Shown: one piece after another, positions 18,181-41,206 of the stretch
Layout of the letters: every line of letters begins with the position of its first letter
Numbering within the stretch: the stretch's first letter is position 1
Virus record (IMG/VR): IMGVR_UViG_3300045988_154248
Source: a virus
Reading direction: 5' to 3' (one strand)
Length of the DNA stretch: 64,000 bases
Program-made: the position numbers and the translations under genes
Notes under the pieces: model-generated
What the model was told of the DNA's origin: nothing
Databases searched by the model: none
What the model saw: the letters and a program-made list of their open reading frames with translations, nothing else

Positions 18181-18666
18181 ATGGCAAGTGATAAAATGTT
18201 AGGTAGTTTTGATCAAAAATCTGCACCAGAAGATAATGATCTTTTGGTAGAATACGATGCTGCTGCATCGAAAGTTAAGAATGTGAAGTTCGGAGGTGTG
18301 TGGAACTGGATAGTTAAGAAATTGACATCCGCCGTAATTAATGAGTTACAAACATCAAGTAAGAATGTAGTGGGGGCTATTAATGAATTAAATAGTAAGA
18401 AAGCGATTTGCACCACTGGTTGGGAAAACGGTAATGCAAAATCTATTTTTGAAATATTTTCGCCAACTTCTCCAAATGGTATTTATAGTTATTATAATAT
18501 TAAAGATATTCCATTTTATCATTCTCCTACAGATGCCTATGTAACAATAATAAAAGGACATGAGTTAATTATTGCTTTTAATGAACAGAGTATTTTTATA
18601 ACAGGAAGTTCAAGAAATACATGGACAAAGGAATGGCATTCTATCAAGCTTGGTATCCTATCTTAA
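18181..18666 (+). CDS. shufflon expression locus: tail-fibre tip protein (constant residues 1-73 plus currently fused cassette A, 88 aa)
   Basis: This is the only ORF in the locus with AGGAGG plus ATG. Site F1 is in frame as L-N-S-K at codons 70-73. The stop TAA 18664-18666 lies inside site F2. The cassette ends ...RNTWTKEWHSIKLGILS. Confidence 0.8.
   Translation: MASDKMLGSFDQKSAPEDNDLLVEYDAAASKVKNVKFGGVWNWIVKKLTSAVINELQTSSKNVVGAINELNSKKAICTTGWENGNAKSIFEIFSPTSPNGIYSYYNIKDIPFYHSPTDAYVTIIKGHELIIAFNEQSIFITGSSRNTWTKEWHSIKLGILS
18388..18399 (+). repeat. shufflon crossover site F1 (TTAAATAGTAAG), forward orientation
   Basis: Exact 12-mer, in frame as Leu-Asn-Ser-Lys in the expressed gene. Confidence 0.8.
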
Positions 18667-18674
18667 ATAGTAAG
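18663..18674 (+). repeat. shufflon crossover site F2 (TTAAATAGTAAG), forward orientation
   Basis: Exact 12-mer. It supplies the stop of cassette A in one frame and the NSK entry of cassette B in another. Confidence 0.8.
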
Positions 18675-19397
18675 ACATTATTACATAATGCAGGTGGTCA
18701 TAACTCTATCTTCAGAGGTAAGAACTTAGGTACATCTTACACATCTGCGATGTCTAAGGCTATTCAGGCGGGTACATTTGATGACCTGTATGTAGGTGAT
18801 TACCTTACAATCAACGGTACTGTATATCGAATCGCTGGATTCAATCTTGGAAAACAGATTGGAGGCAACGCATCTATGGGTAACTGCATGTGCCTCGTTC
18901 CTGACTCTGCTCTGTATAGCGCACAGATGCACAATACGGATAGTGGTCAGTATACAGAAGGTTCTGCTGCAAATACAACAACCGGTGCATATGCAAATTC
19001 TGATATGAGAACCACCAACCTTGCACAGGCAACTCAGAAGATTGTGAACGACTTCGGTTCTACTCATGTAATGTCTTACAGAGATATCCTGCCGAACGCA
19101 ACCGCTAACGGACAGGCTTCTGGATGGGCTTGGTATGACTGTAAAGTTGAACTGATGTCTGAGGTTATGGTGTACGGAACAACTGTATGGGCTAATAGCG
19201 GATATGAAGTTGGATGTATCAACTCTCAGCTCCCACTGTTCGCTCTCGCTCCTGAATATATTCACCGTCGCTTCGTCTATTGGCTCCGTGGTGTTGGGAG
19301 TGCGACTTCCTTCGCTTCTGTGAGCAACGCCGGTTATGCGACCAACACCAACGCTTCTTTTTCTTATGGTGTTCGTCCGTTTTTCTTCGTTAATTAA
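18675..19397 (+). CDS. silent forward cassette B (240 aa), start-less C-terminal module
   Basis: It reads NSK/TLLHNAGGHNSIF...YWLRGVGSATSFASVSNAGYATNTNASFSYGVRPFFFVN from site F2. There is no SD before the in-frame ATGs at 18621 and 18633. The YWLR...GVRP C-terminal pattern differs from the small cassettes. Confidence 0.65.
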   Translation, partial: TLLHNAGGHNSIFRGKNLGTSYTSAMSKAIQAGTFDDLYVGDYLTINGTVYRIAGFNLGKQIGGNASMGNCMCLVPDSALYSAQMHNTDSGQYTEGSAANTTTGAYANSDMRTTNLAQATQKIVNDFGSTHVMSYRDILPNATANGQASGWAWYDCKVELMSEVMVYGTTVWANSGYEVGCINSQLPLFALAPEYIHRRFVYWLRGVGSATSFASVSNAGYATNTNASFSYGVRPFFFVN

Positions 19398-19536
19398 GAT
19401 TTTTACGTGCATAGAAACGGGAATAATAGCTATTGACTGCGGATTTAATTGGTTTATATTTTTCAAGTATTTGATGAGAGAATATGGGAATGTGGTAATA
19501 GAAATTGCCAAAATTTCCCAAGGAGGTAGGTTAATA

Positions 19537-20535
19537 TTGACAAAATTAGAAAATATTCTCGAGCAAATACTTGAAAAATTACAGGATAGCTTAACGCATG
19601 AACAGCTTTCGGAATTAGAAAGCACTATGGTTATTGCATTCCACGGAATCGAGGTACAAGAAGAACACACTCAGTTAGTAACATCAGAGCGTACATGGGA
19701 GAAGATTCTTCGGATGTATTGTGCCGCAAAGCGTGTTGAAAATTGCTCCGAAAGAACTATTAAAGGTTACAGTCGATGCATTATTCAGTTTTTCACGCAG
19801 ATCAACAAGAAAATAAATAACATAACTACGAATGATATTAGATATTATTTGGCATTTTTTCAAGAAACGCATCATACTTCTATTGTATATCTTGATAACA
19901 TACGTAGGTATCTTAATTCATTTTTTACATGGGCTGCGGATGAAGGATATATACAATCAAATCCTATGCGAAAACTCAAGAAAATGAGAGTACCTACTAA
20001 ACTTAAAAAAACATTTTCAGCAGCAGAGATGGAAGAACTTCGTTGCAGTGCAAACTCTCAGAGAGATATTGCAATTATGGAATTTTTATATTGTACTGCT
20101 ACTCGTATTGGAGAGGCAGTTAGCGTTAATCGCTCGGATATTGATTGGCAAAGAAAAGAATTAATTGTTTATGGAGAAAAGGGCAAGAAAGAACGTACTG
20201 TTTATTTGACAGATCGCTGCATTTATCATCTTAAAAAATATCTTGATGAAAGAAAAGATACAAATGAAGCTTTATTTGTATCCTCAAAATCTCCACATAA
20301 GCGACTTGGAGTTCAGGCAATTCAGTCTATGTTGGCAGCGTTAGGTAAAAAGACAAATATTCACGTACATGCTCATAAATTTCGAAGGACGTTACTTACG
20401 GATGCAGGAAAACGTGGTATGCCATTACAAGAGATTCAGGTCTATGCAGGACACGCCAAGCCAGATACAACGATGCAATATGTAATGGTTCAACAAGAAC
20501 GTGTTAAATCGAATTTTATGAAAAATATTGCATAA
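19537..20535 (+). CDS. tyrosine site-specific recombinase (XerC/D / phage-integrase family), candidate shufflon invertase
   Basis: TTG start 19537 lies 10 nt after AGGAGG. Catalytic contexts are ATRIGEA (Arg), HAHKFRRT (His-x-x-Arg) and AGHAKPDTTMQY (His...Tyr). The gene sits between the forward and inverted sites. Confidence 0.85.
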   Translation: MTKLENILEQILEKLQDSLTHEQLSELESTMVIAFHGIEVQEEHTQLVTSERTWEKILRMYCAAKRVENCSERTIKGYSRCIIQFFTQINKKINNITTNDIRYYLAFFQETHHTSIVYLDNIRRYLNSFFTWAADEGYIQSNPMRKLKKMRVPTKLKKTFSAAEMEELRCSANSQRDIAIMEFLYCTATRIGEAVSVNRSDIDWQRKELIVYGEKGKKERTVYLTDRCIYHLKKYLDERKDTNEALFVSSKSPHKRLGVQAIQSMLAALGKKTNIHVHAHKFRRTLLTDAGKRGMPLQEIQVYAGHAKPDTTMQYVMVQQERVKSNFMKNIA

Positions 20536-20689
20536 TTTTTATAAATAGTCTAATAAAAATACCCTTATTTTTTGATCGCCCATTGGACGGTCTATTTATC
20601 GTGTATGTATATATTGATATTTTGCAATTTTGTAGGTTGCATGTTTTTATTCTTGTATTTATATTAAATCCGCAGTCTATAGAATTATT

Positions 20690-20989
20690 TTAACCAAATA
20701 ATAATCCATTCACTTTGTAAAAGGACTCCAATTTGGAGTTTCCGTTAAAAGTAATTTTACCCAAATCTGTATTAATAGCAATACTTGACGTATCGGTATT
20801 TGACGCAGTGAAAGAAAGTAGTTTCATAGACCATTTTGTTCCATAATTGATAACAATCGAAAAATACACACCACTTCCAATATTACCGGAAATCAATAAT
20901 AAACCGATAGCGGTGTCCGATATATTATATTTGATCGTTGCTGTTTTGTCATTTATTGTCGTATTAACGTCTATTGGTTTGATTCTTGT
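20690..20989 (-). CDS. silent cassette R1 (99 aa), start-less
   Basis: The minus strand from site R1 reads NSK/TRIKPIDVNTTINDKTATIKYNISDTAIGLLLISGNIGSG...LLFG*. The frame is continuous from the site. Confidence 0.7.
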   Translation of the reverse strand, partial: TRIKPIDVNTTINDKTATIKYNISDTAIGLLLISGNIGSGVYFSIVINYGTKWSMKLLSFTASNTDTSSIAINTDLGKITFNGNSKLESFYKVNGLLFG

Positions 20990-21001
20990 CTTACTATTTT
21001 A
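20990..21001 (-). repeat. shufflon site R1, inverted (rc TAAAATAGTAAG)
   Basis: Core AAATAGTAA is present. It contains the stop codon of cassette R2. Confidence 0.75.
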
Positions 21002-21247
21002 TTGAGCTGTAAAATATTTCCATTCAGTCCAACTGTCAGTATTTCTTTTTCTTCTGATGGCAATCTTATCATGTCCAAAAGAAAATGCTAATTGAGCGGT
21101 GTAATTACCGGTACCTAAATTCTGTTGGATAACAAAACATGCGTTTGACCCAAGTCCACTTGGTAATCCTATTGGATTAATTTTTGTATCTAATATGGGG
21201 CATTTCGGCGGATTGTTTAGATCAGTGATATTGTTCACATATATTGC
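20999..21247 (-). CDS. silent cassette R2 (82 aa)
   Basis: NSK/AIYVNNITDLNNPPKCP...RNTDSWTEWKYFTAQ*. It shares the W-x-x-W tail motif with cassettes A, R6 and R8. Confidence 0.7.
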   Translation of the reverse strand, partial: AIYVNNITDLNNPPKCPILDTKINPIGLPSGLGSNACFVIQQNLGTGNYTAQLAFSFGHDKIAIRRKRNTDSWTEWKYFTAQ

Positions 21248-21259
21248 CTTACTATTTAA
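21248..21259 (-). repeat. shufflon site R2, inverted (rc TTAAATAGTAAG)
   Basis: Exact 12-mer. The TAG inside it ends cassette R3. Confidence 0.8.
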
Positions 21260-21557
21260 TTAACACTGCAGCAGAAAATCTATATAAAGTATTTTGTGTC
21301 GAACTTCCAATTGTTATTTGACCATCCAGCTCAATTGAACCAAACATACAATACGGATCAGTTGGCATACTTCCTACTTGAAATATGATCTGTGTTACAT
21401 TGATGGCATTAATATCATTTATCTTAGCTAAAACATACTGGATGCCTGTATTTTGTGCAGTCACATAACCTTCTACTATTAATACTTTTCCGTATGAAAC
21501 AGCAGATATATGCCCTTGGTTTGATCCATACAAAATGTCATAACTTTTAATTTCCGT
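21252..21557 (-). CDS. silent cassette R3 (101 aa)
   Basis: NSK/TEIKSYDILYGSNQGHISAVSYGK...FSAAVLIK*. Confidence 0.7.
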   Translation of the reverse strand, partial: TEIKSYDILYGSNQGHISAVSYGKVLIVEGYVTAQNTGIQYVLAKINDINAINVTQIIFQVGSMPTDPYCMFGSIELDGQITIGSSTQNTLYRFSAAVLIK

Positions 21558-21569
21558 TTTACTATTTTA
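21558..21569 (-). repeat. shufflon site R3, inverted (rc TAAAATAGTAAA)
   Basis: Core is present. The AAA codon keeps Lys. The TAA inside it ends cassette R4. Confidence 0.75.
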
Positions 21570-21827
21570 TCTATACGTATATACATAACAACAGAATGTA
21601 AAGTTAATGCTAGTATTCATAATGAGTTTATTGCCATTCAACGTTACAGAATTTATCCTTGAATTTTCTTTTATTGAATAAATATGTCCAGCCGATGCAT
21701 CATAAAATGTTGAAAATAAATATAAAGCACATCCATCATATGGATGAGAAAAAGATAGTAATCCACATGAAAGAGGAACTAATTCTATTTCTTTCACTCC
21801 GTTTTCGAAAGTCGTTCCGATAACAGT
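21567..21827 (-). CDS. silent cassette R4 (86 aa)
   Basis: NSK/TVIGTTFENGVKEIELVPLSCGL...CCYVYTYR*. Confidence 0.7.
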   Translation of the reverse strand, partial: TVIGTTFENGVKEIELVPLSCGLLSFSHPYDGCALYLFSTFYDASAGHIYSIKENSRINSVTLNGNKLIMNTSINFTFCCYVYTYR

Positions 21828-21839
21828 TTTACTATTTTA
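21828..21839 (-). repeat. shufflon site R4, inverted (rc TAAAATAGTAAA)
   Basis: Identical to R3. The TAA inside it ends cassette R5. Confidence 0.75.
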
Positions 21840-22145
21840 TTCTTCTTTCACGATTGCATTTTTTATGTTTTCATAATAGATAATGATAACAGCATTTGCA
21901 TACTGTGGAAAATTTGAAAACTTTACATTTTGTATAGAATCATTATCGTTACACTTTATTGTGACATCACCTGTTTTTAATGTATTATTTATTTTCCCAA
22001 TAGTACCTGTTAAAAATGTTGAACCTCCGAATAACGCGAATGGAGCATATGATATGTCGTTATTTCCTTCTTTATTTATAGAAATAGTTACCGACTTTAT
22101 ATTGGCTCCAGAAGTTCTATATATCAATAAATTATTAAAGACTTG
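21837..22145 (-). CDS. silent cassette R5 (102 aa)
   Basis: NSN/QVFNNLLIYRTSGANIKSVTISINKEGNND...NAIVKEE*. Confidence 0.7.
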   Translation of the reverse strand, partial: QVFNNLLIYRTSGANIKSVTISINKEGNNDISYAPFALFGGSTFLTGTIGKINNTLKTGDVTIKCNDNDSIQNVKFSNFPQYANAVIIIYYENIKNAIVKEE

Positions 22146-22157
22146 ATTACTATTTAA
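22146..22157 (-). repeat. shufflon site R5, inverted (rc TTAAATAGTAAT)
   Basis: Core is present, Lys codon replaced by Asn. The TAA inside it ends cassette R6. Confidence 0.75.
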
Positions 22158-22402
22158 TGCCAATTGCCCCACGTACCATCACTAAAATCATATATTCTTA
22201 TGCTAACATTCCATACAATAGAATATCTCACGGCATATTGTATTTTAATTCCGTCTTGCATAGATCCAATGCAAAATATAAAATACATATTAGCGTCTGG
22301 TTTGTTTAAAGCAGAAGAAAATGCAATAGCAGATTCTCCGATAGGTAAATCATTACAATCTTTATATTTTCCTTCGCCATAAATTTGTTGTAAACACAAT
22401 CT
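22154..22402 (-). CDS. silent cassette R6 (82 aa)
   Basis: NSK/RLCLQQIYGEGKYKDCNDLPIGE...IYDFSDGTWGNWH*. Confidence 0.7.
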   Translation of the reverse strand, partial: RLCLQQIYGEGKYKDCNDLPIGESAIAFSSALNKPDANMYFIFCIGSMQDGIKIQYAVRYSIVWNVSIRIYDFSDGTWGNWH

Positions 22403-22414
22403 CTTACTATTTAA
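22403..22414 (-). repeat. shufflon site R6, inverted (rc TTAAATAGTAAG)
   Basis: Exact 12-mer. The TAA inside it ends cassette R7. Confidence 0.8.
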
Positions 22415-22698
22415 CTTATAGTCACAAGATCAAGGCAGATTAAAAATGCTGCGCTCCATGGACCAAGTGTCACTTTTAATGTTGCCAAAGAAGCATCAAG
22501 TACGGGTGGTGCTGCAGATCCAGTTCCTTTTGATATTTCTGCCACTCCCGATATCCTTCCTGTTATGTATGCAGAGGTATTGCGGTTGTTATCAATTAGT
22601 AAAAACGAAGTCATATGACTGTTTACACCACCCCACTTTACGCTTACTGTTTTGGCAGAGTCATTACTATATATAATATAACTATTGGCATTGAACCG
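22411..22698 (-). CDS. silent cassette R7 (95 aa)
   Basis: NSK/RFNANSYIIYSNDSAKTVSVKWGGVNSHMTSFLLIDNN...LDLVTIS*. Confidence 0.7.
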   Translation of the reverse strand, partial: RFNANSYIIYSNDSAKTVSVKWGGVNSHMTSFLLIDNNRNTSAYITGRISGVAEISKGTGSAAPPVLDASLATLKVTLGPWSAAFLICLDLVTIS

Positions 22699-22710
22699 CT
22701 TACTATTTAA
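22699..22710 (-). repeat. shufflon site R7, inverted (rc TTAAATAGTAAG)
   Basis: Exact 12-mer. Confidence 0.8.
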
Positions 22711-22739
22711 TTAAAGTGAACGAAAATCTGGAAAATTCA

Positions 22740-23005
22740 TTATATTTTCTTCCAAGTACACCAATTGTTTATGTCTGTAATCATGGATCGATAGAAAATA
22801 TTCTCATGGTTTCCAGGTAGGATAATTTGTGTTACTCTACCAATAGATTCTGCAAAAATGAAAACAAAACAATTAGTACAATGTTGTTCTGTTGGCTCGT
22901 TCTTTACTCGTAGATTACCTGATAAATAATATACGTTCGAAGATGTTAAATTGTTAATCAATATCATGCAACGCAATTGCATTTTTCAAAATCTTTTGAA
23001 AACAT
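22740..23005 (-). pseudogene. cassette R8, out of frame with its entry site (frameshifted or decayed cassette)
   Basis: From site R8 the NSK frame reads MFSKDFEKCNCVA and then stops. The 80-codon ORF 22740-22982, which ends ...DINNWCTWKKI like cassettes A, R2 and R6, lies in a different frame. Confidence 0.6.
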
Positions 23006-23017
23006 CTTACTATTTTT
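23006..23017 (-). repeat. shufflon site R8, inverted (rc AAAAATAGTAAG)
   Basis: Core is present. The stop of cassette R9 lies 3 nt away. Confidence 0.75.
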
Positions 23018-23019
23018 AT

Positions 23020-23313
23020 TTATTGCATTGCAAAAAAGAATATCTTTGTTATTGTTTCATCATTAGTAATATGAGATGTAAAGTTCCACCCATTTCCATC
23101 GAGTGAAAAAATAATACCGGATATCTTAATTGATGATTGATCATAAACAATTTTTTGCACTATAGCAGAATAGCCTTTAAGGTGATTTTTCCAACTTCCG
23201 CAGATGTTAAAGATCCCGTTGTTTTGCCATCTTGTCTTAGATATAATCAAATTAATAAGTGATTCAATATCATTGCTTTCCTGTTGTGGAATATTTTTTG
23301 TTTTTGCTTGGAG
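23020..23313 (-). CDS. silent cassette R9 (97 aa)
   Basis: NSN/LQAKTKNIPQQESNDIESLINLIISKTRWQNNG...KIFFFAMQ*. The track ORF 23020-23421 reads through the site and is an artefact upstream of it. Confidence 0.7.
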   Translation of the reverse strand, partial: LQAKTKNIPQQESNDIESLINLIISKTRWQNNGIFNICGSWKNHLKGYSAIVQKIVYDQSSIKISGIIFSLDGNGWNFTSHITNDETITKIFFFAMQ

Positions 23314-23325
23314 ATTACTATTTAA
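23314..23325 (-). repeat. shufflon site R9, inverted (rc TTAAATAGTAAT)
   Basis: Core is present. The TAG inside it ends cassette R10. Confidence 0.75.
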
Positions 23326-23464
23326 CATCATATATGCCAATTTTTTGCGTTTCTTTATTAAATATAACCTGTATATTTCCTGCCTTTTCGGTATAAAAAA
23401 CAAAACCAAATTGATTATCATTCCAAGACTGTATAATGATTTTTTTTATATTAAAGAATGCCGT
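23318..23464 (-). CDS. silent cassette R10 (48 aa)
   Basis: NSK/TAFFNIKKIIIQSWNDNQFGFVFYTEKAGNIQVIFNKETQKIGIYDVK*. Below the ORF-track size cutoff; found by manual translation. Confidence 0.6.
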   Translation of the reverse strand, partial: TAFFNIKKIIIQSWNDNQFGFVFYTEKAGNIQVIFNKETQKIGIYDVK

Positions 23465-23476
23465 CTTACTATTTAA
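23465..23476 (-). repeat. shufflon site R10, inverted (rc TTAAATAGTAAG)
   Basis: Exact 12-mer. Confidence 0.8.
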
Positions 23477-23525
23477 TCCACCAGATGAAACTCTGCTTTC
23501 ATCCTATTTTTGTTCCTCAATTTTC

Positions 23526-28149: not shown

Positions 28150-29943
28150 TTGGCATCTCCCATTTTTTATGTTGGAGGTGATTTTGTGACAGAAAAAGAA
28201 TTCGTTGAAAAAATAGGTAAGCTTGCCGCCGAAGATATGAAGACAAGTGGAATTTTAGCATCAGTTACTACTGCCCAGGCTTGCTTGGAATCTGGATACG
28301 GAACAACAGAATTGGCAAAGAATGCAAATAATTTATTCGGAATGAAAACAAGTCTCTCTGGTAACACATGGACTTCTGCTTGGGATGGAAAGAGTAAATA
28401 TACGAAGAAAACAAATGAGCAAACCAAAGATGGGAAAGTTTATGTTGTAACTGCTGATTTTCGAAAGTATGCAGATATCCTGACTAGTATCAAAGACCAT
28501 TCCTATTATCTCAATGGAGCGATGAATGGAAAAGTAAAAAGATATGCGGGTTTATCTGGTTGCAAAGACTACAAAACAGCAACGCAGATCATAAAAAATG
28601 GTAGATATGCAACAGATGTTAAATATGTAGATAAAATTTGTAGTTTGATCGAACGATGGGATTTAACTCGTTTTGATAAACTCGGAAGGGAGAATTCGAA
28701 TATGAATATTATTGACGTTACAAATGCAAGCAGACCTTATGTCCCACAATGGGGAAATCAAAAACAATATATTGTAGTTCATTATCTTGGAGTAGCAGGG
28801 CAAAATAATAAAATTAATTCAGATGGATGTGGCGCGCATTACTATATTTATTGGGATGGTACGATTTATAAAGCAGCAGACCATAATGCTATCCTTTGGC
28901 AAGTAGGCACTGCAGGATACTATACTCAAAAACATCCATATGCAAGGAATAGTAACTGTATCGGAATCGAGATGTGTCCTAAGTGTGATGGATCTGGAAA
29001 ATATGCAGAAGATCCAACATGGTATTTTACAGAAGCAACGCAAAATGCTTGCGTACAATTAGTAAAATATTTGATGGGACAACTTGGTGTAGGTGCGGAT
29101 CATGTACTTAGACATTATGATGTTGTTAACAAATATTGTCCTGCTCCATATGTTACTAACAATAAATATAAAACTTCTTGGACATGGAGCGAATTTAAAG
29201 CAAAGCTAGGTTCTACTTCTACTCCTACTGTTGCACCGTCCACACCAGCACAAACAAAAACATATAAAGTTGGTATGTATAAGGTAAATTGTGATCTTCA
29301 TATCAGATCGGATGCAACTGTTAATTCAAAAGTTGTCAATACTATTCGAGATCGTGGCGAGTATACTATAACAGAGATTAAGAATAATTGTTGGGGTAAA
29401 CTAAAATCTGGAGCTGGCTGGATCAATGTTTCGGATGAATATTGTACGTATGTTGGTGTAGTAGCCACTGCAAATAAACCAGTGCCTAAACCAACCGTAA
29501 AGCCAGCTACACCTGTATACAAAGTAGGAAAATATAAAGTTAATTGTGATGCTTTAACAATTAGAAGCGATGCATCCAGCAAGGCAAGCGCAACTGGAAG
29601 CATTCGTGACAAAGGAACTTATAATATCACTGAAATCAAAAATACATACTGGGGTAAGCTAAAATCAGGTGCAGGTTGGATTTGCATTGACAAAGATTTT
29701 TGTACCTATGTCGGTGTTTTGGATAAGCATAGCACTGTTGTAAATAAAGAATTTCAAATTGCAGTTAAGGAAAATGGCATCAGAGTTCGTGCTTCTGCTG
29801 GTCTAAGCGCTAGAATTGCTATTGGTTCTTGCCCTATTGGAACATATACTATCACAGAAACAAAAACTGCTGATGGATATACATGGGGTAAATTGAAATC
29901 TGGTGCAGGATGGATAGCAATTGAATGCTGTGTTAGATTATAA
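28150..29943 (+). CDS. modular endolysin: glucosaminidase, amidase_2 and three SH3-like wall-binding repeats
   Basis: AQACLESGYG..NNLFG indicates a LytD-type glucosaminidase. IVVHYLG...CIGIEMC...HVLRHYDV..KYCP indicates an amidase. The unit YKV(G)..NCD..IRSDA..G.Y.ITEIKN..WGKLKSGAGWI occurs three times. An alternative GTG start at 28186 follows GGAGGTG. Confidence 0.85.
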   Translation: MASPIFYVGGDFVTEKEFVEKIGKLAAEDMKTSGILASVTTAQACLESGYGTTELAKNANNLFGMKTSLSGNTWTSAWDGKSKYTKKTNEQTKDGKVYVVTADFRKYADILTSIKDHSYYLNGAMNGKVKRYAGLSGCKDYKTATQIIKNGRYATDVKYVDKICSLIERWDLTRFDKLGRENSNMNIIDVTNASRPYVPQWGNQKQYIVVHYLGVAGQNNKINSDGCGAHYYIYWDGTIYKAADHNAILWQVGTAGYYTQKHPYARNSNCIGIEMCPKCDGSGKYAEDPTWYFTEATQNACVQLVKYLMGQLGVGADHVLRHYDVVNKYCPAPYVTNNKYKTSWTWSEFKAKLGSTSTPTVAPSTPAQTKTYKVGMYKVNCDLHIRSDATVNSKVVNTIRDRGEYTITEIKNNCWGKLKSGAGWINVSDEYCTYVGVVATANKPVPKPTVKPATPVYKVGKYKVNCDALTIRSDASSKASATGSIRDKGTYNITEIKNTYWGKLKSGAGWICIDKDFCTYVGVLDKHSTVVNKEFQIAVKENGIRVRASAGLSARIAIGSCPIGTYTITETKTADGYTWGKLKSGAGWIAIECCVRL

Positions 29944-30123
29944 TAAATACATGCGTGAAATAAGAAAAGCCACCCTCATCAGGCAGCCAGAAAAGAAATT
30001 TTTCTTTTTTCACCATCATATGAAACAACCGTTTCATCAGTGCAAAAATAGTATATCATATAAGATAAAATGATGCAATAATTTTATGGGGAATATCAAT
30101 TAATTTTGGTATTCCCCATTTTT

Positions 30124-31608
30124 TTACGCTTTTTTATTATTTTTCTGTATTTTTAGATACGTTTCAGGATATCTGTATTGTAGTATATTCATGGCTTTTA
30201 TCATATTTTTTTCTATTACGTGTACCATACCCTTTAATTCGCTATATGAAATATAATCGCTGTCAATTTGATCGACAATATATTTTATTTTATCGACCCA
30301 ATAATCCTCTATTGGTTTTTCTTTTGTTTTAATATACTTATAGCATTGTGGCATATAATAAAAATCATTTCTTCTGATGTCTTGACAAATTTGTTGCATG
30401 AAAGCATTAAATCCTCCTACAGTTAATCTTCTAACTTTGTCAGAATTCTTAAAATATAAGTCAATATAATATTCAATTTTAGGATAATACTTTTTATCTA
30501 ATTCAGAATACCTCTTTCCTTTAGGCGGTATATTCCTACTGCTACTATGTGCATAATTTTGGCTTATTATTTTTTGTTTTTCAACTTCATATTGACCGTT
30601 AATTATTTTACTTACATTACAAGGTAAAATATGATATTGTTTTGCAAGCTTGTTTATGCCGTTATCTTTTGTATACTCTGATCGAATTCTTTCGACTAAT
30701 TCCGAATCAATTTGTTTCGCCGTTTTGCATACAAAAATATCAGATATTTGTATATCTAAAAATAATAATATATGAATTGTTCTAAGTGGATTCGCTTTAT
30801 TTGAAAATATATCTTGCATTTTCTTAATCTGAGAATTCTTTTCTATACTATTCTCTAACAAGTATTGTTCAAAATCATTAATAAATGCTGACTTATGTTG
30901 TAGCCACGAAAGTTGATTTATATACCGTTTTTGAATTAATTTTTTATAGAATACATCAAACATCGTAATACCGTTTTTAAGACTCTGTTTTCTTACTACT
31001 AATTGATATAGGTATTTTGCGGTATTTATTTCACCGATGGTTCCCATATTATACGAATAATCATCATCAATACAATTTTCAGCTGCATGAAAATTAATTA
31101 TTCTTGAATTATTAACATTAATTGACGAATCTTTAAGTTTACATCCGTGAATTACACAAACATTAATTTCTGGAATTTGATGAAAAGCATTCCAATATGT
31201 TTCGTGATATTGCTCTCTATTTTCTTTTGCACATAATGGACAATATTTTAGAAATATTTTTTGATGTTTATGTTTTGGTCTTAATGGAAGATATTCTGTA
31301 AAACTCTTGTCATTTGATATGAACTTTCTCAACGCATCTTCTTTGTTTGATTTGTTTAAAAATAAAGACCAATAGAAAAACATAGTGTGATTATAATATA
31401 AATCATTAACTATATAATTTTTCGACATAAAGGAATACAATGTGTCACTCGGTTCATTCACATAAAATATTTCGATGTATTCATGCGGTTGTTTAAACAC
31501 GATTTCTTTAAAAGATTGATTATTCTGTACATTTATATCTTGTTTCAATCTTGAATACACGCTATAGAATAATTCATGTTCATATATTTTTGGAAAGTAA
31601 TTTATCAT
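30124..31608 (-). CDS. tniQ: TniQ/TnsD-family target-selection protein
   Basis: N-terminus FPKIYEHELFYSVYSRL is the TniQ signature. A zinc motif CPLCAKEN...CVIHGCKL is present. The start overlaps tnsC by 4 nt. Confidence 0.7.
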   Translation of the reverse strand: MINYFPKIYEHELFYSVYSRLKQDINVQNNQSFKEIVFKQPHEYIEIFYVNEPSDTLYSFMSKNYIVNDLYYNHTMFFYWSLFLNKSNKEDALRKFISNDKSFTEYLPLRPKHKHQKIFLKYCPLCAKENREQYHETYWNAFHQIPEINVCVIHGCKLKDSSINVNNSRIINFHAAENCIDDDYSYNMGTIGEINTAKYLYQLVVRKQSLKNGITMFDVFYKKLIQKRYINQLSWLQHKSAFINDFEQYLLENSIEKNSQIKKMQDIFSNKANPLRTIHILLFLDIQISDIFVCKTAKQIDSELVERIRSEYTKDNGINKLAKQYHILPCNVSKIINGQYEVEKQKIISQNYAHSSSRNIPPKGKRYSELDKKYYPKIEYYIDLYFKNSDKVRRLTVGGFNAFMQQICQDIRRNDFYYMPQCYKYIKTKEKPIEDYWVDKIKYIVDQIDSDYISYSELKGMVHVIEKNMIKAMNILQYRYPETYLKIQKNNKKA

Positions 31609-32810
31609 AATTCTACCTCTTCTACAGTAAAAGTATTTTTAATAAGAGTTAAAAGATTACAATTATTAGACTGCGAATGATCATACAAATTCGCAATACT
31701 AATTCCGTCTGGATGTTTAATTATTATATTTTCAACGGGTTTCTTCATGGACGATTTAATCTTTTTTTGTATTCTTTCTGGATGCATGGACGCCGTTTCA
31801 TTATATGATGCATTGAAAATATTAATGTTTAATTCTTCTGTGCCACTCATAATAGCTAGTTCTTGAGCCTTGTAGAATAGCGATACAACCGTTGACGTTA
31901 CTCCATTAGAATGTGAATATAACCAATTTATAAGCTTCTCAGATGGTTCTGTATACTGCTGTACATATTGAAAATGCAACAACTTATTACAGAAATGTAT
32001 AAAAGCATCATCGTAATCCGTTTGTAGATATCGCAATCCAATTGTCCTTCTCTCTAAATGAGGAGCGCTTTCGAACCAATGCAAACATTCCGGTGTTCCC
32101 ACCATACAGATACTAATTCCGCTGCTATTGATGATTTGTGTCAACGATCCAATAAGCTTTTCGCCATTTTTATTGTTGACAACATTCTGAATTTCGTCAA
32201 CAATTAATACGCCAACATGATTTAAACATATTTGACTAACAAAACCAATCAGTCTATCTATTGTATATCGTTGTGCTATTTGCAAATAATCTCCGTCTAG
32301 TGTAGCATCAAGAATACGAACAATTTCTAATAACAGACTTTTTACAGATGAGTCAAATGGGCATTGTACGAGTATAAATGGAGCAATTCTTTGGTACGGA
32401 TCAGTTGTTTCAATAAATTTGTTTCCAGAAATCAATGATATTGCTCTGGTAATAGCACTACTCTTCCCTATGCCAGAAACTCCAATGATTGTAAACGAAT
32501 CAGCACCACCTATAATACCATTATACGTTTGTATGGTGTTTGTTGTATTTTCGATTCTTTGCTGTTTTACCATCATATCATTTTCTTTTTTCTTAATCGA
32601 CCTGAGTAATGCCATATACAATTTATTATATACATCAACAGATAATTGTGATGGAATATAAATATCATATAATTCTGATAACGCCAGAAGACGAGTTGGC
32701 ATTGTTTCATTGGCAATGTTTATATTATAGTTTGGTAATATCTGCAATTGATTTATCAGCTTATCGCCACATAAAAAATCAGGCAATTGTGAAAGTAATT
32801 TACCGTTCAT
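31605..32810 (-). CDS. tnsC: TnsC/TniB-like AAA+ ATPase
   Basis: Walker A GVSGIGKS and Walker B VLIVDEIQN. Operon position lies between the transposase and tniQ. Confidence 0.75.
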   Translation of the reverse strand: MNGKLLSQLPDFLCGDKLINQLQILPNYNINIANETMPTRLLALSELYDIYIPSQLSVDVYNKLYMALLRSIKKKENDMMVKQQRIENTTNTIQTYNGIIGGADSFTIIGVSGIGKSSAITRAISLISGNKFIETTDPYQRIAPFILVQCPFDSSVKSLLLEIVRILDATLDGDYLQIAQRYTIDRLIGFVSQICLNHVGVLIVDEIQNVVNNKNGEKLIGSLTQIINSSGISICMVGTPECLHWFESAPHLERRTIGLRYLQTDYDDAFIHFCNKLLHFQYVQQYTEPSEKLINWLYSHSNGVTSTVVSLFYKAQELAIMSGTEELNINIFNASYNETASMHPERIQKKIKSSMKKPVENIIIKHPDGISIANLYDHSQSNNCNLLTLIKNTFTVEEVEL

Positions 32811-34540
32811 CTTTTAACTCCTCCCCTAGCAATCAATTCAATCTCATTCATCAGATCAATCTTCGCCTGTCGTGCATTGATTTGTTCAGAACGTAGTGTT
32901 GTTTTGCTCTGTTCTTTGATCTGTTCCACTTCATCCAATTTTCTATTCTTATATCTGCTTTCAACCAATTCAAAAGGAATAAACTCGCCCTTCTCTACTG
33001 TCCATACTACAGATACATCATCTGGATCGTAAGCAACCTTAACATCTCCACCTTGCAGGAATCTTTCGGCGCAATCATCCCGTTTATACCGCATCCCATT
33101 TACCACTAGACCACGCCTAGTGAATGTCCCAATGGTACGTGGGAGCAGATATAGGATTATTTTCGCGGTGTCATGCGGGAATGGAATTAAATTTGCGCCT
33201 GGTTGCTGTCTTCCCCATTCCCATATACTGGCTGCATATGGCTTTACTCCGTCTTCGATCATGGATTGTGTGTAAGGGAATCTTTCTATGAGCCGTTGGC
33301 TGTTGTAGTAGATAATACAACGCAGGATGATCTTTTCGAAATCAAACATTGTCAAACAGGCATCCAATCTGTAATCTCTTGCACCTCGTTCTTGGAAGTC
33401 TGGATCAATCACGCCTTTACCCTTAAGAAGAGGTTTATACATGGATTGAATGATGTCAAAGAATTTCTCTACTGCTCCTTTTAACTCTGGCCTGTAAGGT
33501 GGAAGATTTACCATAGTCACACCTGTTTCTGTAATCTGTGCAAAGGATTCTGAAGTATACTCGCGTCCCATATCTGTTACAAAGATAGCTGGCAACTCTT
33601 GCACGTTCCACTGGGATTTTTCTAGTGAGATGCCGAACTTTCTACACCATTCTGTTTTGTCTGTAAGGATATTTTGGAGCAGATGACATAAACTCTTTGT
33701 ATCGTTATTCCATGAGAGAACATAGCCATAACACATACTGCTGTAAGCATCAATACAAGTAGTTAGGATCGGGCGACCTTTTAAGGTTCCTGTCTCGTCT
33801 ATGAGGTAGATGTCACATACAGTTGAATCGAACATACCCGTCCCTATGTTGGTTGCAAACTCACGGATACCATCTCCTAGCAAGGGACGATTGTTCCGCT
33901 GATAATTTGACAGTCCATCTCTGGAAATATAATAAGTTTGGAGCTTCTTGGTTTTCCGGTAAAAGTATCGAAACTGATAAAAGGATGGATGATCGGATAG
34001 TAACTGTCCCATGCTGTCACAATACTTTTCTTTCAGCATCATCTCATATGCTGTAACAAGACTGTTTTGTCTGCGTGTATAGAAGAACTTATTCAATGCC
34101 CATCTCATGTTTTTCTCATCTTTAGTCAGTACCTTTTCTTTCGTATGAACTTTTGGTGCAAGTACAGTGACGGTCTGAAAGATTAGATACTGATACAGAT
34201 AGCGGCGGATGGTCTGCTTACTAATGTTATGCTCCTCTGAGATGGAAGAGATGATGTTTGCAGTTGCTGTACTGTCTCCTAAGTGGTACAGGATTGGTGC
34301 AATCAGAGTGTATCTCTCATGCGCAATGCGCATTTGATCAGATGTAAGCTCCTGTTCGGCTGGTGGAGTGATGTTAAGCGCGTCATATAAATGCTTCTCT
34401 GGCAATGGGGTATATTGCGTTCTGAGCGTCCAGAATGGCATTTTCGGATGGAGACAGTCAATTACAAGGGTCTGGTTATCTGATGTCTTTAAAATTCTGT
34501 AGAACGTGTTATTGATATAGGCTATTTCAGCTTTCTGCAT
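32807..34540 (-). CDS. tnsB: TnsB-like DDE (rve/Mu-type) transposase
   Basis: N-terminal HTH region. DDE contexts are STVCDIYLID, IFVTDMGREY and LKGAVEKFF. A Mu-transposase-like C-terminal region follows. Confidence 0.8.
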   Translation of the reverse strand: MQKAEIAYINNTFYRILKTSDNQTLVIDCLHPKMPFWTLRTQYTPLPEKHLYDALNITPPAEQELTSDQMRIAHERYTLIAPILYHLGDSTATANIISSISEEHNISKQTIRRYLYQYLIFQTVTVLAPKVHTKEKVLTKDEKNMRWALNKFFYTRRQNSLVTAYEMMLKEKYCDSMGQLLSDHPSFYQFRYFYRKTKKLQTYYISRDGLSNYQRNNRPLLGDGIREFATNIGTGMFDSTVCDIYLIDETGTLKGRPILTTCIDAYSSMCYGYVLSWNNDTKSLCHLLQNILTDKTEWCRKFGISLEKSQWNVQELPAIFVTDMGREYTSESFAQITETGVTMVNLPPYRPELKGAVEKFFDIIQSMYKPLLKGKGVIDPDFQERGARDYRLDACLTMFDFEKIILRCIIYYNSQRLIERFPYTQSMIEDGVKPYAASIWEWGRQQPGANLIPFPHDTAKIILYLLPRTIGTFTRRGLVVNGMRYKRDDCAERFLQGGDVKVAYDPDDVSVVWTVEKGEFIPFELVESRYKNRKLDEVEQIKEQSKTTLRSEQINARQAKIDLMNEIELIARGGVKR

Positions 34541-34871
34541 CTGTTACAATCCCCCAATCTTGAACGTGATGGGCAAGCCAGTAGGAATGTGATATGTCCA
34601 GAAGTTTAATTGTAAGTGGCTTGGGCTTGGTCAGATGACTTCGTTCTACGCACTCTCGGACATATTGTGTACCATCCTGTCGGGTGATAAGGAAGTCTGT
34701 GGTATAGTCTTCATCTTCGAGTGGCGCATTGCATTGGAAAGATTGAACAGATGGATCGGTTTCCAGTTTGTCTGCATAAACAGATTGGATGGTATTGTAG
34801 CATCGGCAGATCGTGTCACATTTAGAGAGAGACTTTTTCTCACAGCGTCCTTTGTAGTTTTTCTTGTACAT
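34527..34871 (-). CDS. tnsA: short TnsA-like endonuclease subunit
   Basis: SVYADKLETDPSVQSF...YTTDFLITRQDG...RECV fits the TnsA N-terminal catalytic-domain pattern. It overlaps the tnsB start by 14 nt. Confidence 0.6.
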   Translation of the reverse strand: MYKKNYKGRCEKKSLSKCDTICRCYNTIQSVYADKLETDPSVQSFQCNAPLEDEDYTTDFLITRQDGTQYVRECVERSHLTKPKPLTIKLLDISHSYWLAHHVQDWGIVTDAES

Positions 34872-34892
34872 AGTGTACCTCCTTTGATTTTA

Positions 34893-34990
34893 TGTGTCGA
34901 AAAAGTTACCCAAAAATGAATTATGTGTGTTTCGAAAAGTACCCAAAAATGCTTGTTTTTGGGCGTGTGTAAGAATAAGTACCCAAATCC
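34893..34990 (+). repeat. transposon right-end repeat array (candidate TnsB-binding sites)
   Basis: Three direct units have the form TGTGT-n-GAAAAGT(T)ACCCAAAAATG and start at 34893, 34924 and 34966. Two inverted partial copies lie at 34952-34968 and 34989-35009. Confidence 0.6.
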
Positions 34991-35005
34991 TGTTGTTTTT
35001 GGTAA

Positions 35006-35056
35006 AATCTGGGAAAGCACGAATCCAGTGTTTATGCGGGTTCCCAGATTTTTTAA
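35006..35056 (+). terminator. long-loop hairpin with a T-run at the transposon edge
   Basis: aatctgggaa ... ttcccagatt followed by tttttaat. Confidence 0.35.
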
Positions 35057-35622
35057 TATTTATCATTACACATCCCCAAAAATAGAGTAAAAAATATACT
35101 ATGTTTCAAGGCAACCTCCTTGAGCCTAAAAAGGGCAAAACTGTTGGTTCTGCCGCTGATATGACTATAGAATATTTAATAGATATTTTGACATATATTT
35201 TCGTGTAAACTTTTCCGACCGGAAGGTTTTGTCTATGTTTGGAAAGGGCTGATGAGAAATGGATATGGGATAGATACAAGCAGATGAAATCACAGTTTCA
35301 TCGGAAAATTTCAAAATTGCCAATCCCAAAAACCCAGTATTTAAGCCTTTTTATCTGTGCATAATTTGTTATTAACGTAAAAAAAGACCTCATAACCACA
35401 TTTCTATGGTTACAAGGTCTTCATTTTGTTATTTTTCAATTACTCCGGCTTGTGTCCGGGCTGATGATCGGGGTAAGGGACAGTTGGAAGCTGGTCGGTG
35501 ATCTGTTAGCGAACGGCTAGAGGATCAGTGACTTTGCCCTTTTGAGGATCAACTGGATTGCCCTGGGACATAGAGAAAACCTTGTATGGGGATATTATAA
35601 CCTTGGATTCTCTCCATGTCAA

Positions 35623-39043: not shown

Positions 39044-41206
39044 TTACATGCTTACCCTGTCCTTGATTTCTGCATTCTTTGCTTCGTTATAGCGAGTTTG
39101 ACCGTGAACTCTTGTAAATCCTAAGTACCCGTTCATTCTGTCAATCTTTGTGATCATCTTACTACCACATTTTGGACAAATATCCATTTCTACTTGCTGA
39201 TATCCGCAATCTTCGCAATAACACATTGCAAGATTTACGCCTTCGTAGAAACCTTTATCCATTGCTCTAAGCACAAGTGTCTTAATTGCTTGTTTGTTGT
39301 ATCCAAGATTATATCTGCAATATTGAATCTTGCCGCCATTAAATAGATTCCAGAATCTTCCTTCCTTATCTTGTTTTTCAATCGGATTCATATCTTCTGA
39401 TACATGGCAATGGAAACTATTGCTTACATATTCTTTGTCGGATACGTTTTCAATAATCCCATAAATTTTACGGAATTGCTCTACCTGCAAACCACAAAGT
39501 GACTCTGCGGGCGTACCGTAAATTGCATATAAAATATGGTCTTCTTCCTTGATTCTGTTTGTGTAATCATTGATATACTGCATGACCTCTAAGGCAAATT
39601 GCCCATCTTCTCTAATAGATTTTCCATTATAAAGCCTCTGAAGTTCATTCAGTGCAGTGATACCATAACTCATTGTCATTGGAGGAAGAATAGATTTAAT
39701 TTTATCATCTGGATTTAGATGTCCACCTAAAAAACCACCTTCACAGAAAGCAACCGGATTAACACTGGCATGAAGCTCTCCAATGTAATCATAGGTTCTT
39801 TTATGTAATCCACGAACAAGTTCAAGATAGTAATCTAATACTTCATAAAAATCTTTTGACTCTCTACGAGCTTTTGCAAGAATCATTGGAAGATGCAAGG
39901 AAACAACCCCAAGATTAAATCTTCCTTTAAAAATTGGTGTATCATTTTCATCTGCTGGATGCATACCACCACGTTCATACCATGGACTAAGAAAAGCCCT
40001 ACACCCCATAGGACTAACCACTTTTTTATATTTTTTATACATTTCTGCTACATATCCATCGCCAGTTAAAGATAACCAATCCGGATACATAGTTTTTGCG
40101 CTGCAATCAATTCCTGCATTAAACACATCTGCACTCGGATATTTATCCGATCCATCACCATGCAATTCTTTGTCATATAGAAATACGATTTTAGGGAACA
40201 ATACAGGACGTTTAAATCCTTTTTTACCCTGTCCGTCCTTATGTACATTAAGAAGCGTAATTGCAGCCATTTTGCCGAATTTAGACGTAGCAAGACCAAT
40301 AGTTATCGTAACGAATGGATAATCCCCTCGACTCGAAGAAACCGAGTTCAATTTATATTCAATTCCTTGCCAACCTTGTTCAAAGTCACGATGTACTTTA
40401 TTGGTTGCATATTTATCTGCTATATCATTGAGTAAATCATTATCGAATTCTGAATCTACACAAAAAGATATGTCTTTAAATTCATCAAAATATTTTCTAT
40501 ATGATTTTTCTGCATATGGTTCAAGAATCTTATCTGCTTCTGGAACGGTAAAACCACCATATTGTTGCGCTGCTGTTGATAAAATAATATCTCCCATAAC
40601 ATCAAAAGCCGTATCCAAATAGTTTGGCTCATTATACCAAATGTTACCCATTTCAAAACCGTTTTTCATAACATCCCCTACGTTAAAAAGGCAACAATTA
40701 ATCGTATCGAGTCGAGCAGACCTATCATGGATATAAATATATCCATCTTTTGCTGCTTGTTTTTCTGCATATGTTAAAAAGAATTTTTTATATAATTCAC
40801 TATTCAGCTCGTTGAAAATCAGGCTTCGCTTCGTTGCAACAAGGGCGCTGTCTGTGTTGGCATTGCTCTTGTCTCCGATGTAGCGGATGGACTGGCTACG
40901 CTCATATACTTTATCCATCATATGTACAAAATCTTTTTTGTAATTCCGATATTCTTTATACATTTTGGCTACTTTTGGGTAGTCTTCTTCCAATACAGCT
41001 TCGACGATATTATGCATATCATAAATTTCGATGCTTGTATCATCATCGTAGTTTTCTTCGATTTCTTCCCAAACATCATTCAGGATTTTTTCATAGTCTT
41101 GATTACTTAGTTCAACCATTGCTCTTCTTGCAGCTTTATTGCAAGCATCAATGATTTTTTGCTCTTGATATTCTTCAATTGTTCCATCTTTCTTTACTAC
41201 TCTCAT
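39044..41206 (-). CDS. nrdD: anaerobic ribonucleoside-triphosphate reductase
   Basis: 720 aa with an ATP-cone-like N-terminus, a C-terminal zinc ribbon (CEDCGY...CPKCGS) and the glycyl-radical motif RMNGYLG. Confidence 0.9.
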   Translation of the reverse strand: MRVVKKDGTIEEYQEQKIIDACNKAARRAMVELSNQDYEKILNDVWEEIEENYDDDTSIEIYDMHNIVEAVLEEDYPKVAKMYKEYRNYKKDFVHMMDKVYERSQSIRYIGDKSNANTDSALVATKRSLIFNELNSELYKKFFLTYAEKQAAKDGYIYIHDRSARLDTINCCLFNVGDVMKNGFEMGNIWYNEPNYLDTAFDVMGDIILSTAAQQYGGFTVPEADKILEPYAEKSYRKYFDEFKDISFCVDSEFDNDLLNDIADKYATNKVHRDFEQGWQGIEYKLNSVSSSRGDYPFVTITIGLATSKFGKMAAITLLNVHKDGQGKKGFKRPVLFPKIVFLYDKELHGDGSDKYPSADVFNAGIDCSAKTMYPDWLSLTGDGYVAEMYKKYKKVVSPMGCRAFLSPWYERGGMHPADENDTPIFKGRFNLGVVSLHLPMILAKARRESKDFYEVLDYYLELVRGLHKRTYDYIGELHASVNPVAFCEGGFLGGHLNPDDKIKSILPPMTMSYGITALNELQRLYNGKSIREDGQFALEVMQYINDYTNRIKEEDHILYAIYGTPAESLCGLQVEQFRKIYGIIENVSDKEYVSNSFHCHVSEDMNPIEKQDKEGRFWNLFNGGKIQYCRYNLGYNKQAIKTLVLRAMDKGFYEGVNLAMCYCEDCGYQQVEMDICPKCGSKMITKIDRMNGYLGFTRVHGQTRYNEAKNAEIKDRVSM

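Follow-up and report, generated by a model that had tools for sequence, protein, structure and literature searches.

Tn7, in which TnsABC and TnsD direct insertion into attTn7 after glmS, carries its transposition genes in the order tnsA-tnsB-tnsC-tnsD/tniQ. A replicative route that leads to cointegrates is known for Tn7 with a catalytically dead TnsA, for CRISPR-associated transposons (CASTs) of type V-K and for Tn5053. In a survey of 6,549 Tn7-like transposons, viral genomes were reported to contain no homologues of Tn7-like transposases (Benler et al., 2021; PMC8649781), and a further study mentions phage only in the case of Mu (Faure et al., 2023; PMC10293859). Here we describe a tnsA-tnsB-tnsC-tniQ block, with the same gene order as Tn7, in the IMG/VR virus record IMGVR_UViG_3300045988_154248, of which a stretch of 64,000 nucleotides (nt) was analysed and is referred to as the window. 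We propose that a large gut phage has domesticated the block as a Tn7-like integration module, in which the tns genes act on an adjacent mini-element, and we put the probability of this reading at about 0.7. In the full-text literature, including a 2025 preprint on archaeal Tn7 elements, our searches brought up neither a natural Tn7-type integration module borne by a phage nor any instance of transposition genes lying outside the transposon ends. Among GenBank phages there was no nucleotide match, and the only matches were to tniA at 21% identity, in Acinetobacter phage bins. The parts are of a known kind; what is new is how they are arranged, what carries them and the role they appear to have.

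The block is made up of four genes, the open reading frames (ORFs) of which overlap successively by 14, 4 and 4 nt; protein lengths are given in amino acids (aa):

34527-34871, minus strand: tnsA, 114 aa, a short TnsA-like protein with the catalytic-domain fold only and Cys-rich residues at the N-terminus
32807-34540, minus strand: tnsB, 577 aa, a DDE transposase
31605-32810, minus strand: tnsC, 401 aa, an AAA+ regulator
30124-31608, minus strand: tniQ, 494 aa, a TnsD-like target selector

An earlier note on this DNA had assigned the four overlapping genes to these families, and Pfam, solved structures and fold agree with it. Profile searches gave a Tns-family match for each protein: rve and Mu-transpos_C for the tnsB product, PF05621 TniB and AAA_22 for the tnsC product, PF06527 TniQ (E 5e-11) for the tniQ product and Tn7_TnsA-like_N (E 9e-5, under the gathering score) for the tnsA product. 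The top relatives of known structure were Tn7 TnsB (E 1.6e-38) for TnsB, Tn7 TnsC (E 4e-18) for TnsC and Tn7 TnsD (N-terminal region; E 3.6e-8) for TniQ. Residues D238, D323 and E358 of TnsB align with the catalytic D, D and E of Tn7 TnsB, and the triad is intact. In sequence comparisons of the short TnsA with Tn7 TnsA neither phmmer nor a profile reached TnsA, and only fold comparison succeeded: an AlphaFold2 (AF2) model of the 114-aa protein, with a predicted local distance difference test score (pLDDT) of 94, matched the catalytic domain of Tn7 TnsA (1t0f/1f1z) with a query TM-score (TMq) of 0.73-0.78, the best match being 0.78 with E 1.6e-5. The protein lacks the C-terminal domain. Among 35 homologues D59 and E73 do not vary, and the lysine position of the (D/E)xK motif is occupied by Val75; the short TnsA family comprises more than 450 clusters, nearly all of about 110-120 aa. 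The four minus-strand genes belong to the Tn7 family. Against relatives that are 84-94% identical, dN/dS is 0.04-0.21 for all four genes (tnsA 0.07-0.21, tnsB 0.04-0.06), which points to strong purifying selection on each of them, and a protein identical to the window TnsB is found in 43 collection blocks and is encoded on many metagenomic contigs. Two further statements of the earlier note were accurate: no cas genes, tnsE or cargo genes are present at the locus, and exactly 180 nt separate the tniQ stop from the endolysin stop.

The ends of the mobile DNA are set by homology breaks. In contigs L004 and L006 similarity to the window ends exactly at 35570, and beyond the break lies bacterial rlmH, followed by a 33-nt spacer and then 5'-TGTCCCAGGGCAATCC...; in L034 and L039 the break falls exactly at 35102, where an inverted copy of the right-end repeat arrangement begins with 5'-TGTTTCAAGGCAACC. 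The following features are delimited by these positions, with lengths in base pairs (bp) or nt:

35102..35570, minus strand: mini-transposon, 469 bp, without genes, 5'-TGT...ACA-3', two 20-nt repeats per end
35570: right-end terminus, minus strand 5'-TGTCCCAGGG
35102: left-end terminus, plus strand 5'-TGTTTCAAGG
35545-35564 and 35521-35540 (span 35521..35564), minus strand: right-end repeats, a direct 20-nt pair, ARGGCAA-N6-TGRNYCT, putative TnsB-binding sites
35108-35127 and 35132-35151 (span 35108..35151), plus strand: left-end repeats, a 20-nt pair, inverted relative to the right-end pair
34892..35082, minus strand: repeat array, four copies of the unit TTTTTGGG(T/G)A, in the interval from the left end to tnsA

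The end-repeat motif has just four matches in the 64-kb window, all of them within the mini-element. tnsA starts 230 nt beyond the left end, so that the tns genes do not lie between the two ends, and they are outside the ends in every lineage examined. The end repeats co-vary with the TnsB lineage (GGGCAA-N6-TGATCC versus GGGCAA-N6/7-TTAGC), and left ends in the metagenome scan occur only beside tnsA or in host sites. Many contigs terminate inside the mini-element, which would be expected of a repeat that occurs in several contexts. We conclude that the 469-bp mini-element is the actual mobile DNA.

These positions bear directly on the earlier note's central proposal, that a self-contained minimal Tn7-like transposon (approximately 30060-35075), with the array next to tnsA as its right end, had inserted between phage modules and uses the phage as a vehicle. 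True Tns homologues in canonical order, a repeat array upstream of tnsA and a GC content that differs from that of the phage are all as that proposal would have it. However, when the window was searched with both repeat types no transposon end beyond chance was found downstream of tniQ, and the junctions put both termini upstream of tnsA. The block from tnsA to tniQ is unbounded by ends; both ends lie on its tnsA side and enclose only 469 bp, and the real termini at 35102 and 35570 fall outside the interval proposed. The array does exist, but it is no transposon end: it lies outside the element that the junctions define and is never found at any of them. Arrays with lineage-specific units occupy the same position in L027 (GTTTTTGGGAA x7), L024 (GTTTTTAGGAA), L168 and L190, those of the distant lineages being TTTTTGGGxA-like repeats, and the array at 34892-35082 more probably serves the tns operon as its operator or promoter region. 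Related phages without the insert, by which the ends were to have been defined, were not among the viral-contig and encoding-contig matches; divergent lineages are syntenic throughout. Taking these points together, we regard a self-contained minimal transposon as very improbable.

Two independent contigs, L070 and L130, have the left end fused to tnsA at about codon 72, with a 441-bp deletion that corresponds to window positions 34660-35101. The deletion adjoins the end of the mini-element and is of the type that intramolecular transposition produces.

The conservation of the block is that of a phage module. In all related phages recovered it sits between the nucleotide-metabolism genes and the lysis genes, and this synteny holds in lineages with 50-55% TnsB identity, the flanking proteins of which are 30-46% identical. 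L024, L027, L168, L190 and L192 all have the order promoter (in free forms), right end (TGTnnnAGGGCAA...), terminator, left end, array and tnsA, and the layout is kept in lineages with only 50-57% identical TnsA or TnsB. The genes stay behind when the ends move and can therefore persist only via the phage, which argues for a phage function and not for a selfish insert. The earlier note had held that the same genes at the same place in all relatives, without end repeats, would indicate a domesticated or non-mobile module. The constant position of the block agrees with this, although the mini-element has itself moved repeatedly into host genomes with 5-bp duplications. The question whether the phage serves as a vehicle was well posed.

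Evidence for this mobility came from bacterial DNA. A scan of metagenome contigs with the end motif returned 117 loci, among which solo mini-elements in bacterial DNA carry perfect 5-bp target duplications:

L097: solo copy downstream of rlmH, duplication GCGTG
L131: solo copy 1 nt farther than that of L097, duplication CGTGA
L096 and L099: solo copies inside the terminator hairpin of a PFL/glycyl-radical (pflB-like) gene, duplication CCCGC
Distance of the right end past the stop codon: rlmH 33-36 nt; asd about 27-33 nt; PFL gene 32 nt; proA-like gene about 16 nt
The same distance in related lineages: ppdK about 9-12 nt

The rlmH copies lie 33, 34 and 36 nt past the stop codon and all reconstruct one and the same empty site, and they are therefore independent insertion events. 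The 3' end of asd is the right-end flank at about 27 loci, at several offsets and including L040 from a Lachnospiraceae metagenome-assembled genome, and the 3' end of a gene for a proA-like aldehyde dehydrogenase is another such flank. In every case the right end faces the stop codon of the host gene, and these genes have housekeeping roles. Most of the asd and proA-like copies are truncated remnants that retain just the right-end half. It can be seen from these insertions that the mini-element has transposed repeatedly into host genomes and that the module is not inert.

Decayed copies that keep 190-380 nt of the right end, including the terminator, were also seen after asd or proA-like genes in L041, L055 and about 40 more metagenome loci. 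They appear to be fossils of earlier insertions that now provide the terminator of the gene.

Other contigs join phage and host DNA through the mini-element, and they are of two types:

rlmH site: host gene/mini-element/tnsA-tnsB junction in L004, L006, L077 and L119; phage SH3-gene flank/mini-element/host in L091, L117 and L075
pflB-like site: host gene/mini-element/tnsA-tnsB junction in L059; phage SH3-gene flank/mini-element/host in L034, L074 and L103

Both junction types were found at both sites, in independent samples and with independent assemblers, and the outer flanks carry the matching 5-bp duplication. This set of junctions is what would result if a phage genome lay between two copies of the mini-element in direct orientation, and we infer that the contigs represent true prophage junctions. 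In a separate contig, L152, two right ends point the same way at a distance of about 7.6 kb; rearranged structural genes of the phage fill the interval, and asd of another species lies on one side. Either a defective, rearranged prophage or an assembly error would account for it.

A different reading of the same contigs is that the Tns proteins only scatter the mini-element, either as a selfish non-autonomous element or to deliver a terminator, promoter or RNA to host genes, that the phage itself never integrates and that the hybrids are chimeric. The solo copies with their duplications are the sole product directly proven, the contigs do break inside the repeat, and the large set of replication and nucleotide-metabolism genes is typical of virulent phages, all of which would suit such a reading. 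However, both junction types recur in independent assemblies, their duplications are consistent and the phage type fits the site. Moreover, in the related lineage P0082, the TnsA of which is 57% identical, contigs of 176-300 kb from many samples have the integrated order ppdK/mini-element/tnsABCQ/lysis genes, and in the P0019 lineage one identical TnsA occurs in two settings, integrated after ppdK and on a free replicon that has the promoter. These two lineages argue that integration is real. It is also the case that destroying a copy of the donor genome to plant 469 bp would bring no obvious benefit to the phage. We consider mere scattering of the mini-element unlikely.

Within the P0019 lineage (L190-L195), tnsA of the free replicon adjoins a Rep gene of the Phage_CRI type, and a serine resolvase is encoded three genes after tniQ, which is what cointegrate formation would lead one to expect. 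The module thus seems to be employed by non-phage replicons too, together with a dedicated cointegrate resolvase.

Insertion at more than one site goes together with an exchange of genes within the block. In phages like L022, L156 and L106, the TnsA and TnsB proteins are 96% identical to those of the window, whereas TnsC is 52% and TniQ, which in this second type is 486 aa long, only 22% identical. The exchange point is the tnsB/tnsC boundary and coincides with a drop in GC content, from 0.44 in tnsA and 0.42 in tnsB to 0.33 in tnsC and 0.26 in tniQ (window 0.34). The mosaic history suspected in the earlier note from the GC-rich tnsA and tnsB is correct. TniQ of the window type is found at the rlmH junctions; L059, at the pflB-like site, has tnsC of the second type, and the opposite junction at that site bears the flank typical of type-2 phages. 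TniQ type thus tracks insertion site, a correlation suggesting that exchange of tnsC-tniQ may retarget the phage.

With these observations in hand, the domesticated integration module that we propose can be described in steps. The products of the short tnsA, tnsB, tnsC and tniQ would act in trans on the adjacent gene-less 469-bp mini-transposon. TniQ would recognise the 3' end of a conserved host gene, which for the window variant would be rlmH, TnsC would recruit TnsB, and the mini-element would be inserted in a single orientation, a few tens of nt beyond the stop codon, and would acquire a 5-bp duplication. With the tns genes on the donor backbone, what would profit the phage is that its entire genome integrates with a copy of the mini-element on each side. 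If recombination between these copies removed the prophage, solo copies and decayed remnants would be left behind.

Three routes to such an integrated genome can be envisaged. The one we favour, tentatively, is replicative transposition giving a cointegrate, which fits with the atypical TnsA and with the serine resolvase beside tniQ in the P0019 lineage. A somewhat less probable route is that a solo copy is first deposited as a 'landing pad' and then recombines with the phage copy, and we think it doubtful that a unit of a concatemer is cut and pasted from the right end of one copy to the left end of the next. The broader picture, to which we would give even odds, is that a widespread family of gut phages and related replicons has replaced a classical integrase with a re-wired Tn7 system in which the transposase operon stays fixed on the backbone of the replicon, the mini-transposon is the equivalent of attP, lysogeny proceeds by TniQ-directed, probably replicative transposition that brings a genome of at least 100 kb into a safe harbour, and a swap of tnsC-tniQ reprograms the target.

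Several points weigh against an integration module of this kind in the phage of the window. No contig was found that holds both junctions of one prophage, no viral contig has the mini-element twice, and the use of the p91 homologue as an anchor led to no large contigs. Short-read assemblers could join a solo copy in the host to the phage copy through the 469-bp repeat, and the hybrids of the window lineage could in that event be chimeric; the P0082 and P0019 examples belong to lineages other than that of the window. The copy carried by the phage in the window is without a target duplication (CTCTA versus TAGTA), and no resolvase was found within the window. The search of phage DNA for the end motif covered the 64-kb window, and the remainder of the genome could hold further ends. 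Binding of TnsB to these ends is presumed from their adjacency and co-variation. Finally, with Val at the canonical Lys position, the short TnsA may or may not carry out 5' cleavage: cleavage would favour cut-and-paste, and its absence replicative transposition.

The only recombinase in the window besides the Tns proteins is a tyrosine recombinase, and the mini-element contains a palindrome:

19336-20535, plus strand: tyrosine recombinase, among tail genes
35283..35302, no strand assigned: palindrome GATGAAA-N6-TTTCATC, located within the mini-element; its arms are conserved, its spacer differs between variants

These two features raise the possibility that the mini-element is an attP-like site and that another enzyme, either this recombinase or host RecA, integrates the phage into copies that stem from an unrelated Tn7-like transposon of the host, the phage tns genes being a relic or having some other role. 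The recombinase gene lies at a distance of about 14 kb and keeps its syntenic place in some relatives, the conserved arms and variable spacer of the palindrome resemble recombinase core sites, and truncated host copies would supply homology. However, the tns genes are under strong purifying selection and always lie beside the element, TniQ type correlates with the site, and our scans gave no host-resident autonomous element with these ends. The recombinase itself is at no prophage junction, the junctions being TGT/ACA termini with 5-bp duplications. It lies amid nine inverted TTAAATAGTAAGAC sites and tail-fibre cassettes in the pattern of a shufflon, and the palindrome is dispersed through the genome. 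Integration by such an enzyme is in our view improbable.

The nine TTAAATAGTAAGAC-like sites occupy window positions 18380-23480, two on the plus strand (18388 and 18663) and seven on the minus strand (21001-23476); they flank the tyrosine recombinase gene and adjoin small minus-strand ORFs. The region looks like a multiple-inversion shufflon that exchanges the C-termini of tail fibres.

The palindrome has 7 matches in the window against 1.2 expected. Sites at 23484, 30019, 35283 and 58465, together with weaker ones, are dispersed in intergenic DNA, one of them between the tniQ and endolysin stops and one within the mini-element. The motif may be a regulator-binding site. Its role as a resolution site for the tyrosine recombinase was considered and dropped, the motif being dispersed in the genome and the recombinase lying in a shufflon-like array.

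Two further elements, a promoter and a terminator, would control transcription across the right end of the mini-element:

35594..35622, minus strand: sigma-70-type promoter, TTGACA-17 nt-TATAAT, 12/12 match to consensus
35383..35422, minus strand: strong intrinsic terminator, 18-bp stem and T run, about 150-190 nt inside the right end

The promoter begins 1 nt past the stop of the SH3-domain gene and is directed into the right end of the mini-element. It is also present in the distant lineages L024, L027 and L192, where 22-23 nt separate the -10 box from the TGT terminus. The terminator is kept in all mini-element variants and in the truncated host copies, and it would halt transcripts entering from the flanking gene or from the promoter. 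A strong promoter directed into the mini-element and a conserved terminator within it are also what might be expected if the Tns proteins only scatter the mini-element. The predicted RNA, of about 205 nt (about 35587 to 35380, minus strand), runs from the promoter across the right end to the terminator, and its right-end fold has a z-score of -3.4. No compensatory changes were found in the right-end RNA among eight variants, and there was no covariation beyond the terminator, so that only the terminator is supported as an RNA structure. A further layer of control may come from the conserved consensus promoter together with this RNA. ARAGORN and Rfam gave no match to a tRNA, tmRNA or known RNA in 35100-35620, even at E up to 1, and this rules out such an RNA as target or cargo there.

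Two differences between related phages were seen in the modules on either side of the block. In L002, L003, L005 and L007 (the equivalent of window 28150-29943) the gene for the 597-aa endolysin is split into ORFs of 183 aa and 323 aa by an inserted IS605-family TnpB gene (OrfB_IS605/Cas12f-like, 372 aa). In L011-L017, compared with window 39044-41206, nrdD and nrdG are only 25-29% identical while neighbouring genes are 95-98% identical, and the pair has therefore been replaced within the nucleotide-metabolism module.

If the proposed model holds, tailed phages would have a third way of lysogenisation besides site-specific recombinases and Mu-type transposition, and in the module nature would have its own equivalent of mini-Tn7 and CAST donor designs, one that moves payloads of at least 100 kb. 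The TnsC-TniQ cassettes would represent natural modular retargeting, with sites at rlmH, asd, pflB-like, proA-like and ppdK genes, and could serve as compact, protein-guided, site-specific inserters for human-gut Firmicutes. The family of short 114-aa TnsA proteins would offer a test case for cut-and-paste versus replicative outcomes in Tn7-like systems.

Among described systems Tn7 is the closest in its parts. The module shares with it TGT...ACA termini with repeated internal sites and a 5-bp duplication, as well as insertion in a single orientation, tens of nt past the stop, with the right end directed at the 3' terminus of a conserved gene, glmS in the case of Tn7 and the host gene in that of the mini-element. 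In contrast to Tn7, however, the genes of the module are outside the ends, the mobile unit is 469 bp long and gene-less, and the carrier is a phage. Its TnsA, of 114 aa, consists of the catalytic domain only and has Val at the canonical Lys position, its TnsC is 401 aa long compared with 555 aa in Tn7, there is no TnsE, and each end has two repeats where those of Tn7 have 3 and 4.

Transposons of the Tn5053/Tn402 type (tniA-tniB-tniQ-tniR) have a Tn7-related TniA/B/Q core, transpose replicatively via cointegrates and possess a dedicated resolving recombinase, a trait to which the serine resolvase shortly after tniQ in the P0019 lineage can be likened. Unlike the module, Tn5053 is without TnsA, targets the res sites of plasmids and has its genes inside the ends, and the window differs from it in that no resolvase was found. 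Type V-K CASTs, which have no TnsA cleavage, frequently give cointegrates in which the whole donor is flanked by two copies, like the prophage that we propose; they differ in being RNA-guided through Cas12k, in having no TnsA at all and in carrying their genes inside the element. The logic of laboratory mini-Tn7 is identical, with helper genes outside short ends and site-specific insertion into a safe harbour, but the module is natural, phage-carried and deeply conserved, and its payload within the ends is only regulatory DNA.

Phage Mu likewise enters the chromosome by means of a DDE transposase of the same superfamily (Mu-transpos_C) and an AAA+ partner, MuA and MuB. The ends of Mu are its genome termini, its insertion is near-random and transposition is its mode of replication, whereas those of the module face each other across 469 bp within the genome, and insertion is site-specific and, as we envisage it, directed by TniQ. 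Nor does the module resemble that of a temperate phage of the integrase type, with attP beside int, as its junctions are TGT/ACA termini with 5-bp duplications.

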